The position numbers and the translations under genes are program-made. 64,000 bases of DNA, from contig VBBS01000031.1 in assembly GCA_005888745.1 (NCBI GenBank), positions 55,614 to 119,613 on the forward strand, read 5' to 3'. The notes under the pieces are model-generated. The model ran no database searches and was not told where the DNA came from. It saw only the letters and a program-made list of their open reading frames with translations. Positions within the stretch are counted from its first letter, which is position 1. Each line of letters opens with the position of its first letter. Source of the stretch: Candidatus Bathyarchaeota archaeon. Lineage in GTDB: Archaea > Thermoproteota > Bathyarchaeia > 40CM-2-53-6. This document shows, in pieces, positions 35,870-41,475 of this stretch.

Positions 35870-36268
35870 ATGGCTATCCTCGTCAGGGTCCCAGTGCCGA
35901 TTCTAGAGGACCTGGTCGAGGCTGCAGTCTCGAAACAGGGAAACATCTACCGCGCTGAACTTGCCAAGCTGATTGGTGCTTCCAAGGAATCGCTCGACGG
36001 CAAAACGTCATTGTATTTGATCAGCCTCATGAAGCTCTGCGGTTTCGCCGAAGCAGACATGGCTAATGTTTTGAGAAAGTCGAAGATCGTGAACCAGCGA
36101 GGAGCGGTGACCCACGACATCTCTTCCGGGGATGAGCTGAAAGGAGTAATCGATAATGCGCTGGAAGGATTCCAGTTATTGATCTCCGAGAGCTTCAAGC
36201 CAACTGAGCCGGAAAAGGAGGGATTGTTCAACCCGTCTGCCTATAGAAAGAAGCCTCCCGAAAAATGA
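35870..36268 (+). CDS. Hypothetical soluble protein
   Basis: 132 aa, not hydrophobic, so it is not nuoA. Confidence 0.35.
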   Translation: MAILVRVPVPILEDLVEAAVSKQGNIYRAELAKLIGASKESLDGKTSLYLISLMKLCGFAEADMANVLRKSKIVNQRGAVTHDISSGDELKGVIDNALEGFQLLISESFKPTEPEKEGLFNPSAYRKKPPEK

Positions 36269-36453: not shown

Positions 36454-37005
36454 TTGTCCGCTCAGAGACCTGCCCAAGAAGAAGACCCTGTAGCGACGCT
36501 TGCAGAGGGCCTGAGCATCTGGGTTGGAAAACTCAGCGATCTTGTCAAGAAGGTCGTTGACACCGGGCCGATTCGAAATGTGATCAACTGGGCGCGAATG
36601 TACTCTCTATGGCCGGTCAATATCACAACTGCCTGTTGCAGTGCTGAGTTCGGCGCAGCTAGCGGCGCACGACACGATCTTGAAAGATTTGGGGTTTTGC
36701 CGATAGGCTCTCTCCGGCAATCAGACCTGATAGTGATCGAGGGAACTATCACGAAGAAGATGGCGAAACGGCTCCGGATGATCTACGACCAGATGGCGTT
36801 GCCCAGATACGTTATTGCAATGGGAGACTGCGCTATGTCCGGCGGCCTATTCCATGACTCCTATAGTATAGTGAATGGCGCGCACGAGTTTGTCCCAGTG
36901 GACGTATACGTCCCGGGTTGCCCCCCAAGACCAGAGGCCTTGGAGCAAGCGATCATCATGCTCCAAGAGAAGATTCGAAGGTCAAAGGTGTACGAGCAGG
37001 GATGA
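36454..37005 (+). CDS. nuoB: NADH:quinone oxidoreductase / Fpo-type complex subunit B (20 kDa, N2 cluster)
   Basis: ...TTACCSAEF...GDCAMSGG...VPGCPPRPE are the cluster N2 ligands. Confidence 0.9.
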   Translation: MSAQRPAQEEDPVATLAEGLSIWVGKLSDLVKKVVDTGPIRNVINWARMYSLWPVNITTACCSAEFGAASGARHDLERFGVLPIGSLRQSDLIVIEGTITKKMAKRLRMIYDQMALPRYVIAMGDCAMSGGLFHDSYSIVNGAHEFVPVDVYVPGCPPRPEALEQAIIMLQEKIRRSKVYEQG

Positions 37006-37484
37006 GCCTTTCTCACGAAAGAGAAGATGCTCTCGTACAAAAGCTCAAAGAGAGCTTTCCCGCCGACATCAAGGAAACGAACATTATCCGCCGCGCCAGG
37101 CTTGAAGTGACCGTCGCTCCAGAGAAGATCAAGGACATCGCAGTATTTCTCCGAGACAAACTCGGGTTTGACCATCCAAACGGGGTTTCTGCTGTTGACT
37201 ATAACCGAGAAAACAGGTTCGAGATCGTCTATCATGTTTCATCGATGGGCATCAGGGAAATGCGAGATCTTGTTCTCGACTTGAAAGAGTCGGTTCCAAG
37301 AAACGCGCCGAGGGTGGGGTCTCTGGTCTCGGTCTGGTCGGGTGTTGAGAACTATGAGCGAGAAAGCTTCGAGATGTTCGGAATAGCTTTCGAGGGTCAC
37401 CCGAGATTGGAGAAGCTGTTTCTGACCGACAACTGGGATGGGCCCCCTCCTCTCCGGAAAGACATACGATTTCCTACGGACTGA
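37002..37484 (+). CDS. nuoC: Complex-I-like subunit C (30 kDa)
   Basis: NuoC fold (...ERESFEMFGIAFEGHPRLEKLFL...). The ATG overlaps the nuoB stop (ATGA). Confidence 0.85.
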   Translation: MSLSHEREDALVQKLKESFPADIKETNIIRRARLEVTVAPEKIKDIAVFLRDKLGFDHPNGVSAVDYNRENRFEIVYHVSSMGIREMRDLVLDLKESVPRNAPRVGSLVSVWSGVENYERESFEMFGIAFEGHPRLEKLFLTDNWDGPPPLRKDIRFPTD

Positions 37485-37491
37485 GACGACA

Positions 37492-38637
37492 ATGTCAGCG
37501 CCTCCTAAACCCGTTCCCCTGACAACTGTCGAGTCCACTGAGACTTCTGAGTCTGGGGCTCAAACGCTCACGTTGAGCGTTGGTCCTCAGCACTCCGGCT
37601 CAGGACACATGCGGTTGATCGTGGAGGTGGATGGCGACATCATTGTTAACGTTGCCCCGGACCCCGGCTATGTTCACAGAGGGATCGAGAAGATTATTGA
37701 GCTCAGAAATATTATCAAGAGTATTCCGGTCATCGAGAGACCCTCGATCATCGATGCTTCCAATCTCAACCATGCATGGGTGAGGTCGATCGAGGAGATT
37801 CAAGGGGTGGAAGTTCCTCGAAGGGGACAATACCTCAGGAGTCTCCTGAACGAGATGAACAGGATCATGAGCCACCTCTACTGGCTCTCTATCTACGGCG
37901 TATTCCTCGGACATACCACCATGTTCATGTGGCCCCTCGGTGACAGAGAGCTATTCATCGATCTAGCTGAGAAGCTTACCGGCGCCAGGATCACCTACTC
38001 CTATCTTGTGCCCGGTGGGGTCCGGCGTGATCTGCCGCCTGGGTTCGCTGAGGAGGCTATCAAGAGAACAGAATACTTTGAGAAACGCTTGAAGGAGTAC
38101 GACCGGATATTCTTCAACAACCCGTTATTCACGTCTCGGGCGAAAGGAATCGGGGTCCTCTCCAAAGAGAAAGCGATCGACCTAGGGTGTACGGGGCCGA
38201 CACTTCGAGGTTCAGGTGTTGACGCCGACCTTCGCAAGGACGAGCCCTACGCCGCCTATCCTGAACTCGACTTCGAGGTCTCAACCCGACCCGACGGTGA
38301 TTCCTTCAGTAGGGCGATGGTCCACATGGATGAAATGCGAGAGAGTTGCAAGATAATACGCCAGATCGTCAAGAAGATTCCTTCGGGGCCAATCAGGAGG
38401 AAGGCGCCGATAGTGTTGCCTCGTGGTATCGCGTATGGAAGGGTTGAGTCGGCTCGAGGCGAATGCAGCTTCTATCTCATAGGCGAAGGAGGCGACAAAC
38501 CTTACCGGGCTCGGTATATCACCGGTTCCTACCGCAATATGGCCGCTATCCCAGCGGTTCTGCTTGGAAACAGGTTGGCGGACATGCCTACTGCATGGTG
38601 GAGCATAGACTACTGGCCAGTAGAGGCGGACAGGTAG
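37492..38637 (+). CDS. nuoD: Complex-I-like subunit D (49 kDa)
   Basis: NuoD/NiFe-large-subunit-like fold with the RGxE...H signature. The start is taken at the internal Met after the nuoC stop. Confidence 0.85.
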   Translation: MSAPPKPVPLTTVESTETSESGAQTLTLSVGPQHSGSGHMRLIVEVDGDIIVNVAPDPGYVHRGIEKIIELRNIIKSIPVIERPSIIDASNLNHAWVRSIEEIQGVEVPRRGQYLRSLLNEMNRIMSHLYWLSIYGVFLGHTTMFMWPLGDRELFIDLAEKLTGARITYSYLVPGGVRRDLPPGFAEEAIKRTEYFEKRLKEYDRIFFNNPLFTSRAKGIGVLSKEKAIDLGCTGPTLRGSGVDADLRKDEPYAAYPELDFEVSTRPDGDSFSRAMVHMDEMRESCKIIRQIVKKIPSGPIRRKAPIVLPRGIAYGRVESARGECSFYLIGEGGDKPYRARYITGSYRNMAAIPAVLLGNRLADMPTAWWSIDYWPVEADR

Positions 38638-38643
38638 AAAGCA

Positions 38644-40233
38644 ATGGCCCCGATCATCGGCAAAGCGAAGGCCGCGATCGACATCTCGATCGCATACCTG
38701 ACAGGGATACGTCACCTCTTCCACAGACCCTACACGCTGAGGTTTCCCCAACAAAGATACGCCGTTGAGAAGGGATACAGAGGACGACATCTGCTTCACC
38801 TCGATCGGTGCACTGGTTGCGGGATCTGCGCGTGGATCTGTCCTGAGAAATGTATCACGATCGTACCTCGCGGCCAGCGATGGTACCCACAATATTTCTA
38901 CGGTCGTTGTTGTTTCTGCCACTTCTGCGTGACTCCTGATACACTTGTATCGACGAACCCATCCGTCTCACCTATAATCCAGATACAGCCCGGCGACCGG
39001 GTCTTGACGCACACCGGGCGCTACCGTAGGGTGCGCGAGGTCCTTACACGAAACTACTCGGGAAGACTCTACAGCATCAAACCATTGGGAACGCCTTTCC
39101 CCCTTAGGGTGACGCAGGATCATCCCCTCCTAGTATCTTCCAGAAACATCATCAAAAAGGGGAGACTTGAGAAGAAACCAAGGGCCCCCATGTGGAAGAC
39201 ACCCCTTGAACTGAAACGGGGCGACTACCTGACGATGCCTATCGCCAAGGAGGTTCGGGACATCGACGTTTACGAACAGGAGGTCGTAGTTAGTCAGCCC
39301 AGCACCGGAAAACGTCTCAGAAGCAAGCTGAGCCTGAGAACAGAGCCTGATTTGTTTAGGCTGATCGGGTACTACCTTGCAGAAGGTTACGCTGTAAGGA
39401 GAACTGTCGGCTTTTCATTCGGAGAACACGAAAAAGAGTACATTGCCGACTCATCCCGACTCCTCGAGAAATATTTTGGCCGCGAAACCAAGAGGTCAAC
39501 GATACACAATTCGACCCATGTCCTTCTCCACTCCGAAGTTGCCCTTCAATTCTTCAAGACCTTTGGCCTAGGCGCGGAAAACAAGAAACTTCCAGATTGG
39601 GCTATGTTTGCGCCGGCCGAAAAACAGCGAGAACTCATACGCGGAACATGGAGAGGCAACGGTTACCTTCACAGACCCACCAAGGGCAATCGTTCAACGT
39701 TCTTCGAGTACACGACGATTTCCAAGACACTCGCCTTCCAGCTGCAACAACTCCTCTTCCGGACAGGAATTGTTGGCCAAGTTGGACTTACCTCCCATGC
39801 AGACCAGAGACCAACCTACGTGGTGACGGTTAGAGGCCGTTTTGTTTCGGCAATGGCAGATCTGATGCAGATCAGATTTGAGGACGAAAGGGTCAAGACG
39901 TTTTCTCGCTTTGAAATGGACTCGGACTATGTCTACGCGCCGGTCGAGAAAATATTCTCAGTTGAAGTTCATGATCAGCCTGTTGTGAATCTCTCGGTCG
40001 AGGGAGATGAGTCCTACGTGGCGGGAAGCGTGACAGCACACAATTGTACAGACTATTGTCCAGAGTTTGCGTTGGAGGAGACTGTTGAGTATGATATTGC
40101 AGAGTATACGCGTGATCGTTTGGTGTGGAGTCCTGAGAGGCTTTCCAAGCCCCCTGTTAAGAAGGACGACAAGTACGTGTTCAGTGTTGATACGATCGGG
40201 GGCGCGTCACAGGTGCGTCAGAAGGAGGAATAG
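38644..40233 (+). CDS. nuoI: Complex-I-like subunit I (2x[4Fe-4S] ferredoxin), interrupted by an intein
   Basis: The extein totals 156 aa. First motif CTGCGICAWICP. Second motif CCFCHF|CTDYCP is split by a 373-aa insertion. Confidence 0.8.
   Translation: MAPIIGKAKAAIDISIAYLTGIRHLFHRPYTLRFPQQRYAVEKGYRGRHLLHLDRCTGCGICAWICPEKCITIVPRGQRWYPQYFYGRCCFCHFCVTPDTLVSTNPSVSPIIQIQPGDRVLTHTGRYRRVREVLTRNYSGRLYSIKPLGTPFPLRVTQDHPLLVSSRNIIKKGRLEKKPRAPMWKTPLELKRGDYLTMPIAKEVRDIDVYEQEVVVSQPSTGKRLRSKLSLRTEPDLFRLIGYYLAEGYAVRRTVGFSFGEHEKEYIADSSRLLEKYFGRETKRSTIHNSTHVLLHSEVALQFFKTFGLGAENKKLPDWAMFAPAEKQRELIRGTWRGNGYLHRPTKGNRSTFFEYTTISKTLAFQLQQLLFRTGIVGQVGLTSHADQRPTYVVTVRGRFVSAMADLMQIRFEDERVKTFSRFEMDSDYVYAPVEKIFSVEVHDQPVVNLSVEGDESYVAGSVTAHNCTDYCPEFALEETVEYDIAEYTRDRLVWSPERLSKPPVKKDDKYVFSVDTIGGASQVRQKEE
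38926..40044 (+). mobile_element. Intein (Hint domain plus LAGLIDADG-type homing endonuclease core) inside nuoI
   Basis: Starts CVTPDTLV (block A) and has TQDHPLLV (block B). The endonuclease core contains GYYLAEGYAV. Ends VHDQPVVNLSVEGDESYVAGSVTAHN followed by +1 Cys. Excision restores C-x2-C-x2-C-x3-C-P. Confidence 0.75.
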
Positions 40234-40236
40234 ACA

Positions 40237-41475
40237 ATGTCCGCGGCTCCGAAACCCGCAACGTCGCCAGCTGTCGCTCAGACTATGCCTCTGAAGTCGA
40301 CTGTCGAGGGTGAAGGTTGGAAGGCGCGGCCGATCAAGCTCAAGATCTTTGGTAATCTCATCCAGGAGGTTGTGAACAAGAACCTCTGCATGTACTGCGG
40401 AGCCTGCATTGCCTCCTGCCCGATCGACATTCTCTTTCACAGCGAAAAAGAAGAACCGGTGATGAGGGGTACTTGTGCTGCCTGCCAGGTCTGCTACTAT
40501 AGTTGCCCGAGGATCGAGCTACCGCTTGCGGAGATCGAGCAACAGGTCTTCGGACGATCGAGAACTGCCGAGGAGGCGATTCTCGGAATCCATGTCGGAT
40601 CCTACTCGGTCAAGTCGAAGGACCCTGATGTGGTCAAGCGTGCCCAGGATGGTGGAGCCGTAACTTCTCTCCTACTCTACGCGCTCGATCGAAAGATAAT
40701 CGACTACGCCGTCAACTCTGGCTTTACGTCAGGTAAGCCCTGGCGGCCTGAGCCGCAGATCGCGCGGACTAGAGCGGACCTGTTGAACCACGCCGGGTCC
40801 CGATACACACCCGGAGGGCAGGTCGGAGGACTGGCTGAGGTAGCTATCCCTAACCGGTCTGTTGTTAGCTTCCAGGAAGAGCGTATTGCTCTTGTCGGGT
40901 TGCCCTGTGAGCTTCAGGGAAACTGGCGCATGGCCACTCACTGGATAGCCGCACCGAAGCTCACGAGAAATCTCGTATTCACGATTGGGCTGTTCTGTTC
41001 TAAGGTGTTTGATTATCAGAAGATGATGGTGGACTATGTTCAGGGCAAGAGGGGAATAGACCTCAACAACGTTACGAAGGTCAATATCAAGAGAAACCGG
41101 TTGCTAGTCTACACAGGGGACAAACTTGCCATTGACGAGCCTGTGGAGGCTGTGGCCGCTGCGGCGCGCGAAGAATGTAATGCTTGTGTCGACTATTCGG
41201 CCGAACTGGCCGACATCGCTGTTGGTGCTATCGGATCGGCTCCTGGTTGGAGTACGGTTATTACTAGAAGCCCGAGGGGAGAGGAGATACTGAGAGGCGC
41301 GGTTGAATCAGGCTACTTGGATGCGAAGCCATTGGACCCGATGGGAAAAGCGATGAAGTTTCTTGAGAAGCTGTGCGAAAAGAAACGCTTGCGGGACCCC
41401 TCGGCTTATCTGCGCCATGAGACTGCTTTCCCGAAGCCGGAGCCAACTCTGGTTGCGCTCGAGATCCCCCACTAG
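40237..41475 (+). CDS. FrhB/FpoF/FqoF-like protein (coenzyme F420-binding iron-sulfur flavoprotein)
   Basis: N-terminal 2x[4Fe-4S] (CMYCGACIASCP, CAACQVCYYSCP) followed by an FrhB_FdhB N/C-like body with conserved Cys near the C-terminus. Confidence 0.7.
   Translation: MSAAPKPATSPAVAQTMPLKSTVEGEGWKARPIKLKIFGNLIQEVVNKNLCMYCGACIASCPIDILFHSEKEEPVMRGTCAACQVCYYSCPRIELPLAEIEQQVFGRSRTAEEAILGIHVGSYSVKSKDPDVVKRAQDGGAVTSLLLYALDRKIIDYAVNSGFTSGKPWRPEPQIARTRADLLNHAGSRYTPGGQVGGLAEVAIPNRSVVSFQEERIALVGLPCELQGNWRMATHWIAAPKLTRNLVFTIGLFCSKVFDYQKMMVDYVQGKRGIDLNNVTKVNIKRNRLLVYTGDKLAIDEPVEAVAAAAREECNACVDYSAELADIAVGAIGSAPGWSTVITRSPRGEEILRGAVESGYLDAKPLDPMGKAMKFLEKLCEKKRLRDPSAYLRHETAFPKPEPTLVALEIPH

Follow-up and report, generated by a model that had tools for sequence, protein, structure and literature searches.

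A predicted class-1 intein interrupts an iron-sulfur motif of a NuoI-like protein in uncultured archaea

The mycobacterial SufB intein is one whose splicing is conditional. Others are the Pyrococcus abyssi MoaA intein, which is trapped by a disulfide between an N-extein cysteine and Cys1, and the DnaB and Prp8 inteins, which are inhibited by Zn (PMC10663303). Most of the inteins known so far cluster in ATPases and in proteins of replication and repair (PMC4760082). In haloarchaeal MCM, several intein sites (MCM-a to MCM-d) are crowded into one conserved motif, and the archaeal-genome table of the same study contains no multi-intein genes for Thaumarchaeota (PMC10643990). Here we describe an insert in a NuoI-like gene, found in a window of 64,000 nucleotides (the whole stretch of DNA analysed) from an uncultured archaeon of the Bathyarchaeia. 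A search of the full-text literature for inteins together with NuoI/complex I, Fe-S, radical SAM, Bathyarchaeota or Thaumarchaeota returned no description of a NuoI intein. The main text of a 2016 intein census does not mention NADH, ferredoxin, Fe-S or a NuoI intein. Two apparent precedents were set aside: a Thermoproteus tenax paper states merely that no inteins were found, and a 'NADH dehydrogenase' match in PMC2814812 is about introns.

The first-pass annotation had proposed a nuoI reading frame of 529 aa with 373 extra residues, and the limits of both were confirmed exactly (Table 1). The elements it had named (the CVTPDTLV start, a block B TQDH, a LAGLIDADG-like motif and a terminal HN followed by Cys) are likewise present. 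Contigs from ENA ERZ28573795 and Logan SRR5436853 contain a protein identical to the window precursor. When the insert, CVTPDTLV...VAGSVTAHN, is deleted in silico, a 156-aa protein remains (computed mass 18.2 kDa) that carries CTGCGICAWICP and the rejoined CCFCHF+CTDYCP, that is, the perfect C-x2-C-x2-C-x3-C-P motif that had been anticipated. As also foreseen, the third ligand Cys of this motif doubles as the +1 nucleophile, its codon directly following HN. The fit of insert boundaries and restored motif is far above chance. The predicted spliced-junction peptide is CCFCHFCTDYCPEF. In alignments, the Fe-S motif columns of the N-extein are invariant among intein-free homologues. The exteins hold ten cysteines, and the insert holds Cys1 only.

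The best NCBIfam families for the spliced protein are NuoI (NF004541, 96.5 bits; TIGR01971, 93.9 bits against a cut-off of 113.05) and FpoI (71 bits), all below the curated cut-offs. Because the score falls under the NuoI cut-off, we refer to the protein as NuoI-like. Its best solved homologues are subunit N of P. furiosus MBS (6U8Y), E. coli NuoI (7AWT) and subunit N of MBH (6CFW). Immediately 5′ of the gene lie nuoB, nuoC and nuoD, a complex-I module context, and with the gene that follows they make up a nuoB-C-D-I-frhB-like operon; no membrane-arm genes were found near it in the window. The FrhB/FpoF-like gene downstream is present in loci L001 and L002 as well, and locus L061 has at this position a 414-aa gene without a Pfam match on record. 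Minus-strand reading frames over the NuoI-like gene (e.g. 38281..38922) were dismissed as spurious in view of the conservation of the plus-strand gene and the strong purifying selection acting on it.

Table 1. Features of the NuoI-like locus in window coordinates
Feature	Coordinates	Strand	Remarks
nuoB	36454..37005	+	Pfam Oxidored_q6; upstream of the NuoI-like gene
nuoC	36918..37484	+	Pfam Complex1_30kDa; upstream of the NuoI-like gene
nuoD	37438..38637	+	Pfam Complex1_49kDa; in public contigs (L002) 340 aa, start 37615
NuoI-like gene	38644..40233	+	529 aa, 60.9-kDa precursor (N-extein + intein + C-extein); from ORF list and translation
N-extein	38644..38925	+	94 aa; profile matches to NuoI/FpoI
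First 4Fe-4S motif, CTGCGICAWICP	38809..38844	+	In N-extein
CCFCHF	38908..38925	+	First two Cys of motif 2; in N-extein
Predicted class-1 intein	38926..40044	+	373 aa, 42.7 kDa, precursor residues 95-467; Cys1 the sole cysteine
Block B, TQDH (T63-x-x-H66)	39112..39123	+	Intein residues 63-66
LAGLIDADG homing-endonuclease domain	39340..39864	+	About intein residues 139-313; Pfam LAGLIDADG_3
LAGLIDADG motif 1, LFRLIGYYLAEG	39352..39387	+	Intein residues 143-154
LAGLIDADG motif 2, LIRGTWRGNG	39634..39663	+	Intein residues 237-246
Codon AAC (Asn245)	39658..39660	+	Motif-2 metal-binding position; GAC/GAT (Asp) in 59 of 61 relatives
Blocks F and G, VVNLSVEGDESYVAG...TAHN	39982..40044	+	Near intein C-terminus
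Terminal His372-Asn373	40039..40044	+	Block G; followed by +1 Cys
C-extein	40045..40233	+	62 aa + stop
+1 Cys codon TGT	40045..40047	+	Third Cys of motif 2; opens C-extein
CTDYCP	40045..40062	+	Rest of motif 2; C-extein start
FrhB/FpoF-like F420-dependent subunit gene	40237..41475	+	N-terminal 2x[4Fe-4S] domain; Pfam FrhB_FdhB_N, FrhB_FdhB_C, Fer4; downstream

Natural intein-free alleles exist, and NuoI homologues have the motif uninterrupted at the insertion site. The closest such protein (P0121) is 156 aa long and 97% identical to the spliced NuoI-like protein; the set to which it belongs (P0121-P0132) comprises proteins of 156-159 aa that are 76-97% identical and contain an uninterrupted CCFCHFCTDYCP. 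At the DNA level, the locus encoding P0121 (L001) aligns with the window up to 38928 and again from 40044, defining a precise insertion of 1119 bp, with 3-4 nt of breakpoint ambiguity because the Cys codon is duplicated. The empty site of L001 provides a candidate homing target, TTTTACGGTCGCTGTTGTTTCTGCCACTTT|TGCACAGACTATTGTCCAGAG.

Profile searches of the insert matched intein and endonuclease families. In Pfam, LAGLIDADG_3 scored 42 bits against a cut-off of 22.5, and Hint_2 (25.7 bits, cut-off 28.4) and Intein_splicing (21.7 bits, cut-off 35.8) matched at the intein termini below their gathering scores; the NCBIfam matches are to the intein parts of Tes, RpoA'', PolD, DnaB, GyrA, VMA and RecA. 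An AlphaFold (AF2) model of the insert is confident (pLDDT 92.9, pTM 0.91), and its top fold matches in the PDB are all inteins, led in Foldseek by TliVMA (E 1e-22, TM 0.73) and followed by PI-SceI, PI-PkoII and PI-PfuI. Homology to PI-PkoII and to VMA inteins is also seen in sequence searches of the PDB. Cys1, T63 and H66 are invariant in all 61 Bathyarchaeia-type and all 14 Nitrososphaeria-type copies; H372, N373 and Cys+1 are kept in 61/61 close relatives. On profiles, modelled fold, conserved residues and intein-free orthologues, the insert is thus identified as an intein of class 1 that contains a LAGLIDADG endonuclease, in line with the first-pass reading of an intein with a homing-endonuclease core.

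Asp is the usual residue at position 4 of block F, where it is helpful and not universal among inteins. Here, residue 355 is Asn in all 61 Bathyarchaeia-type copies (group 1) and Asp in the Nitrososphaeria-type copies (group 2). Asn at F:4 is a variant that does not exclude membership of class 1. One could nevertheless read it, together with the sub-threshold Hint profiles and the loss of one endonuclease residue (below), as a mark of a decayed remnant that no longer splices, leaving a pseudogene or a permanently interrupted protein. We regard this as extremely improbable: nothing breaks the reading frame, 59 of 61 copies measure exactly 373 aa, the nucleophiles, TxxH and HN are all invariant, the Asn at F:4 is fixed throughout the clade and not a lesion private to this copy, and the model shows a complete Hint fold. 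Furthermore, dN/dS values of 0.10-0.16 for the intein (Hint and endonuclease parts alike), as compared to 0.008 for the extein, indicate that both are under selection, purifying in the case of the intein, and the extein value implies a functional host gene. We retain the reading as an intein that is predicted to splice.

The endonuclease domain is conserved in 57 of the 61 copies. In the window copy it is supported by modelled helices at residues 141-153 and 231-245 and by fold matches to I-DmoI/I-Tsp061I, and both LAGLIDADG motifs align with those of PI-PkoII. The family has one acidic metal-binding residue in each motif, whereas the window copy retains Glu153 in motif 1 and has Asn245 in motif 2. 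Position 245, the column of the PI-PkoII motif-2 catalytic Asp, is Asp in 59/61 relatives and in 14/14 Nitrososphaeria-type copies. The substitution is common to three contigs assembled independently. In LAGLIDADG enzymes, Asp-to-Asn changes (I-CreI D20N and the PI-SceI D218/D326 mutants) abolish cleavage and leave DNA binding. Hence, the endonuclease of the window copy is probably disabled by D245N, with the splicing residues intact, and the annotated homing-endonuclease core stands as a domain but probably not as an active enzyme.

The Asn245 enzyme could retain nicking activity, and it is conceivable that the window copy is a still-active homing endonuclease that either tolerates Asn245 or acts as a nickase triggering gene conversion. 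Elsewhere the domain is undamaged and evolves under purifying selection (dN/dS of 0.16-0.17 versus the closest relatives), motif 1 keeps its Glu, and the inteins of the window and of a related locus (L060) share an ancestry more recent than that of their host genes, so that transfer was not ancient. Set against the conservation of Asp at this position and the loss of cleavage in the corresponding mutants, we consider continued activity unlikely. Overall, we are highly confident that the NuoI insert is a genuine class-1 intein, of a family mobile via its LAGLIDADG endonuclease, and that the endonuclease of the window copy is most likely disabled.

Mobility was assessed with 99 extein sequences, 61 intein-plus and 38 intein-free. 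The two kinds of allele are intermingled: a rough and noisy neighbour-joining tree of a 156-aa alignment shows at least 26 changes of state, and for 44 of the 99 exteins, the nearest neighbour has the opposite intein state. The comparison of synonymous divergence covers only three intein-bearing loci, with some 100-290 synonymous sites in each region. For the window versus L060, pS is 0.359±0.029 for the intein and 0.56-0.67 for nuoD, the extein and frhB; for L060 versus L061 it is the intein that has diverged more (0.49, against 0.25-0.39 for the host). This discordance between intein and host indicates horizontal movement. Across the two clades of Bathyarchaeia hosts, identity is 61-69% for the inteins but only 47-54% for the exteins. 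With its scattered presence and its synonymous divergence discordant with that of the host in both directions, the intein behaves as a mobile parasite. Base composition was discarded as a sign of foreign origin, as the gap between the intein (GC 0.517, GC3 0.584) and the host (0.54-0.555, 0.61-0.65) is too small. A family HMM run against the six-frame translation of the window detected no related intein other than the NuoI copy.

We propose the following sequence of events. The NuoI-like gene would be translated as the 60.9-kDa precursor. An N-S acyl shift at Cys1, aided by T63 and H66, would give a thioester that then moves onto the +1 Cys; cyclisation of Asn373 would free the 42.7-kDa intein, and an S-N shift would remake the F94-C95 peptide bond and restore C-x2-C-x2-C-x3-C-P. 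The 18.2-kDa NuoI should then be able to ligate both clusters. The intein family would be a selfish mobile element that is gained and lost repeatedly and whose endonuclease drives its spread by homing to the invariant site encoding CCFCHFCTDYCP. The window copy, its endonuclease most likely disabled by D245N, would persist only via retained splicing.

The first-pass annotation also proposed that the protein would bind its second cluster only once it has spliced. In the standard 2x[4Fe-4S] ferredoxin pattern, the C-terminal part gives one ligand to each cluster. Because the C-extein thus supplies one ligand per cluster, the insertion should affect both clusters and not the second alone. The precursor itself retains CCFCHF-C(1), a C-x2-C-x2-C arrangement of Cys89, Cys92 and intein Cys1, and cluster or metal binding there is possible because the intein termini are close together. 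This raises an alternative in which the intein is a domesticated switch: a disulfide, Zn/Fe or an Fe-S cluster held by these three cysteines would block the first splicing step, coupling NuoI maturation to redox state or Fe-S supply. The contrast between a lone intein Cys and ten extein cysteines, the invariance of the splicing residues, the existence of conditional inteins (disulfide-trapped MoaA, Zn-inhibited DnaB and Prp8) and the Fe-S biology of the nearest relatives outside NuoI, in SufB and radical-SAM proteins, would all suit a switch. We judge it rather improbable, given that very close relatives are intein-free, that presence and absence are scattered over the host tree, that synonymous-site discordance indicates horizontal movement, and that an endonuclease conserved in 57/61 copies is expected of a mobile parasite and not of a fixed regulator. 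The parasite model could accommodate such a switch as an additional feature. A bolder and highly speculative extension would make the intein more than a parasite: a metal, cluster or disulfide at the precursor C-x2-C-x2-C would gate splicing and assembly of NuoBCDI-FrhB, and the NuoI, SufB and radical-SAM inteins would form a clade specialised on Fe-S cysteine motifs.

The first-pass annotation had raised the possibility of a new intein allele. No published description was found, although the allele is abundant in public metagenomes, being common in Bathyarchaeia and non-marine Nitrososphaeria, and some entries already carry the automatic label 'NuoI/intein/homing endonuclease'. Many others are truncated or named merely 'LAGLIDADG homing endonuclease', 'SufB' or 'helicase', so that metabolic reconstructions of these uncultured archaea can overlook NuoI. 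We conclude that the NuoI intein is genuine, that uncultured archaea commonly carry it and that it is, within the literature searched, previously undescribed. In Nitrososphaeria, NuoI has an intein at the same site, and often a paralogue of it (31-34% identity between the two) is inserted just six residues upstream; in the Nitrososphaeria locus L006, the intein-bearing NuoI sits between nuoH and nuoJ-K-L/M.

The allele extends the host range of inteins into the complex-I family, to a core subunit of electron transfer. Since the nucleophile of splicing also serves as an Fe-S ligand, the cofactor site of the host would be completed only by splicing. The many intein-plus and intein-minus alleles, decaying endonucleases and the paralogous intein pair offer a study system for the homing cycle, and the sequence predicts a Cys1/Cys+1 intein that tolerates a Cys-rich context, a candidate tool.

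How does this intein compare with known systems? TliVMA/PhoVMA (7QSU, 7QSS, 7QST), PI-PkoII (2CW7), PI-PfuI (1DQ3) and yeast PI-SceI (1VDE) likewise have a Hint domain split by a double-motif LAGLIDADG endonuclease, and the NuoI intein has in common with them Cys1, TxxH and, ahead of a Cys, a terminal Asn, which in the window copy is part of His-Asn. Similarity to the solved LAGLIDADG inteins is clear in structure (Foldseek E 1e-22 to 1e-14, TM up to 0.73) and, for PI-PkoII, in phmmer (3e-11), but sequence identity is only 12-18%. Unlike these inteins, the window copy has Asn at F:4 and at the second catalytic acidic position, and it resides in an Fe-S electron-transfer subunit, not in an ATPase, polymerase or RNR.

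The nearest relatives outside NuoI are a SufB intein (P0190; 37% identity, E 3.5e-61) and two radical-SAM inteins (P0191, P0192; 33-34%), and the NCBIfam Tes-intein model matches the window intein at E 2.5e-12. Archaeal SufB and B12/radical-SAM (Tes-like) inteins share its C-terminal signature, ...SVEGDESYVAG..HN|C, and likewise reside in hosts of Fe-S biology. However, their insertion sites differ and their hosts are unrelated, and it is in NuoI that the +1 Cys is a cluster ligand of a ferredoxin-type CxxCxxCxxxCP. Nitrososphaeria-type NuoI resembles haloarchaeal MCM in having two intein sites within one motif, but a gap of just six residues separates its inteins, which are paralogous. Finally, the P. 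abyssi MoaA, mycobacterial SufB and DnaB inteins, like that of NuoI, place Cys1 beside extein cysteines of an oxygen-sensitive metalloprotein. For those three, conditional splicing has been demonstrated experimentally, whereas for NuoI it is no more than structurally possible, and the distribution among populations points to a parasite.

Deletion of the insert from the window nuoI gene in silico leaves a protein of 156 aa that contains CTGCGICAWICP and CCFCHF/CTDYCP. The first-pass annotation had placed a 373-aa insert within the ORF and had proposed that its removal rejoins CCFCHF and CTDYCP into a complete 4Fe-4S motif. The ORF and its translation give exactly those limits (see table), and both motifs are present in the in silico product. 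Motif 2 then reads C89-x2-C92-x2-C95-x3-C99-P, with C95 directly following the insert; the third cysteine of this motif is thus the +1 residue, as had been claimed.

Coordinates of the nuoI precursor gene, its insert and neighboring features in the window
Feature	Position (nt)	Strand	Source
NuoI precursor ORF, 529 aa	38644..40233	+	ORF list
Insert CVTPDTLV...VAGSVTAHN, residues 95-467, 373 aa	38926..40044	+	translation
nuoB-nuoC-nuoD-nuoI, then FrhB/FpoF-like gene	36454..41475		
Conserved ORF, 132 aa, directly 5' of nuoB	35870..36268	+	

Searches with the in silico spliced protein identified intein-free NuoI homologues of 156–159 aa (76–97% identity), all of which carry GRCCFCHFCTDYCP uninterrupted at the insertion position. 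The closest of these (P0121, 97% identical) is encoded on a JGI contig, L001, which shares the gene order nuoD-nuoI-frhB with the window. The DNA of L001 matches the window through 38928 and then again from 40044, so the insertion is precise to within a duplicated Cys codon. The empty site in L001 reads TTTTACGGTCGCTGTTGTTTCTGCCACTTT followed directly by TGCACAGACTATTGTCCAGAG.

The insert had been read as an intein with a homing-endonuclease core, and profile searches bear this out. LAGLIDADG_3 of Pfam scores 42 bits (cut-off 22.5), while Hint_2 (insert residues 1–54) and Intein_splicing (residues 36–373, up to the C terminus) align with scores under the gathering threshold. Among NCBIfam models of intein-containing proteins (Tes, RpoA'', PolD, DnaB, GyrA, VMA and RecA), the insert aligns only with the intein parts. 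A phmmer search against PDB sequences returned PI-PkoII (3e-11), with an alignment that takes in the two LAGLIDADG motifs as well as blocks F and G; VMA inteins (PDB 7QSS and 7QSU) were also matched. An AlphaFold2 model of the insert, built from an alignment of 56 sequences, is confident (mean pLDDT 92.9, pTM 0.91). Its top fold match in the PDB is TliVMA (E 1.3e-22, TM 0.73), followed by PI-SceI, PI-PkoII, PhoVMA and PI-PfuI; all the best matches are endonuclease-bearing inteins. Free-standing LAGLIDADG enzymes such as I-DmoI rank after these and match the central domain only. Cys1, Thr63 and His66 (the TQDH of block B), the terminal His372 and Asn373, and Cys+1, which include the block B and C-terminal residues singled out in the first-pass annotation, are unchanged throughout the 61 close relatives. 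A clade-wide deviation concerns position 4 of block F, where 61/61 copies of the Bathyarchaeia type have Asn instead of the Asp found in copies of the Nitrososphaeria type. The insert is a genuine intein, an element of a well-known kind.

Two groups of precursors carry this intein. Group 1 (CCFCHF/CTDYCP; Bathyarchaeia-type) comprises at least 61 full-length precursors including the window copy, with an intein of 373 aa in 59/61. Group 2 (CVFCGL/CVDACP) comes from MAGs labeled Nitrososphaerales, Conexivisphaerales or Thaumarchaeota; its intein is homologous to that of group 1 (∼40% identical) and occupies the identical site. Among 35 parsed group-2 proteins, 15 have the intein at this site alone, 11 have a second full intein (364–371 aa) and 9 a second mini-intein (162–182 aa). 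The second intein precedes the first Cys of the motif, with the two elements set apart by CVFCGL alone (six extein residues). This layout, YGR-intein a-CVFCGL-intein b-CVDACP, is frequent in NuoI of Nitrososphaeria-type MAGs (P0076–P0102; loci L004–L010, e.g. L010, 6001–8103). Inteins a and b are paralogues, 31–34% identical over their full length (E 1e-58 to 1e-69). For Thaumarchaeota, a 2023 survey that tabulates complete archaeal genomes records no gene with more than one intein (PMC10643990). A NuoI variant represented by P0185 (1029 aa) and P0187 (663 aa) has an insertion of ∼150 aa between the two 4Fe-4S motifs and also bears one or two inteins at the NuoI intein sites.

When the intein by itself was used as query in an exhaustive search without profiles, 7809 relatives were recovered at E<=1e-3. 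Those closest to it in hosts other than NuoI lie in SufB (P0190, P0194, P0195, P0198) and in B12/radical-SAM proteins (P0191, P0192), several of which hold more than one intein. Inteins of this kinship thus recur in Fe-S-related hosts, which may reflect either a preference for cysteine motifs or a gene pool shared among archaea.

The exact window precursor protein is also found in ENA ERZ28573795 and Logan SRR5436853. An identical precursor is encoded on L002, an ENA contig, yet L002 and the window (35644 onward) differ when compared over the full 7.6 kb; the window therefore represents another assembly or strain, closely related to that of L002. A search with the full-length precursor gave 248 matches, and among the best 120 the majority are intein-bearing NuoI; named relatives are MAGs of Candidatus Bathyarchaeia or Thermoproteota. 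Some public pipeline labels already read 'NuoI/intein/homing endonuclease'. Others (P0006, P0014, P0022, P0028, P0045, P0064–P0074) read 'SufB', 'ATP-dependent DNA helicase' or only 'LAGLIDADG family homing endonuclease', and many entries are 360–470-aa calls that begin within the intein and lack the N-extein, making NuoI easy to overlook in annotations of these MAGs. Full-text literature searches found no paper that describes NuoI, FpoI or complex I as an intein host, and the main text of a 2016 intein census contains no such case. New details are the host protein, the site with an Fe-S ligand as +1 nucleophile, how widely the intein is distributed and the presence of two paralogous inteins in tandem.

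Relative to the closest intein-bearing loci, L060 and L061, dN/dS is 0.10–0.16 for the intein, alike in its Hint and endonuclease parts, and 0.008 for the extein. Element and host are both under purifying selection, which rules out a pseudogene. Synonymous divergence, compared among three DNA loci only, is discordant between intein and host in both directions. Between the window and L060, pS is lower for the intein (0.359±0.029) than for nuoD (0.669±0.031), frhB (0.572±0.042) or the extein (0.560±0.049); between L060 and L061 it is higher (0.491±0.031, versus 0.25–0.39 for the host). Intein identity between the two Bathyarchaeia host clades is 61–69%, compared to 47–54% for the extein. Within a clade, the intein is the faster-evolving of the two. 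In a rough NJ tree based on a short alignment of 99 exteins, alleles with the intein (61) and without it (38) are intermingled, with at least 26 parsimony changes and an opposite-state nearest neighbor for 44/99 sequences. Collectively, these sequence comparisons indicate that the NuoI intein has probably followed a classical homing cycle of repeated horizontal invasion and loss.

The acidic residues of the LAGLIDADG motifs that bind metal, Glu153 and Asp245, are each present in 59/61 copies. In the window, residue 245, which aligns with the motif-2 Asp of PI-PkoII, is Asn (AAC, versus GAC in L060 and L061); this is not a read error, because three independently assembled contigs share it. By analogy with other LAGLIDADG enzymes, we infer that the window endonuclease would be disabled or reduced to a nickase. 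One of the two residues is lost in 4/61 copies, while all splicing residues are kept in 61/61, a pattern that host selection for splicing combined with merely intermittent selection for homing would produce.

The top families for the spliced protein are NuoI (NF004541, 96.5 bits; TIGR01971, 93.9 bits) and then FpoI (71 bits), all under curated cut-offs, and its nearest solved structures are P. furiosus MBS subunit N, E. coli NuoI and MBH subunit N. Upstream of nuoI lie nuoB, nuoC and nuoD, and downstream an FrhB/FpoF-like gene, an order also seen in L001, L002, L011, L060 and L061; no membrane-arm nuo genes are found near the window nuoI. This arrangement is suggestive of an F420-linked complex-I-like module in Bathyarchaeia that is either soluble or encoded separately. 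By contrast, the Nitrososphaeria locus L006 has a classical complex-I operon, nuoH-nuoI(intein)-nuoJ-K-L/M. The 132-aa ORF, which has no Pfam match and is called in L002 too, may be an uncharacterized operon member.

In 2x[4Fe-4S] ferredoxin folds, each cluster is held by three Cys of one motif and the Cys-Pro cysteine of the other. It follows that the C-extein gives one ligand to each cluster, and the intein is predicted to interrupt both cluster sites, not the second alone. In the 60.9-kDa translation product, the bond between Phe94 and Cys1 would undergo an N-S acyl shift by Cys1, assisted by Thr63 and His66, and the thioester would move to the Cys+1 thiol. Cyclization of Asn373 would free the 42.7-kDa intein, and an S-N shift would remake the peptide bond to give NuoI of 18.2 kDa, in which neither motif is interrupted. 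The precursor itself keeps a C-x2-C-x2-C arrangement, C89-x2-C92-x2-Cys1, in which Cys1 is the sole cysteine of the intein. A disulfide or metal at these residues could hold the precursor and render splicing conditional; we consider this improbable, since the population data favor a parasite. Precursors held by a disulfide (the MoaA intein) or by zinc (the zinc-inhibited inteins) are known (PMC10663303), and it is in such a potential hold that the NuoI precursor would resemble them.
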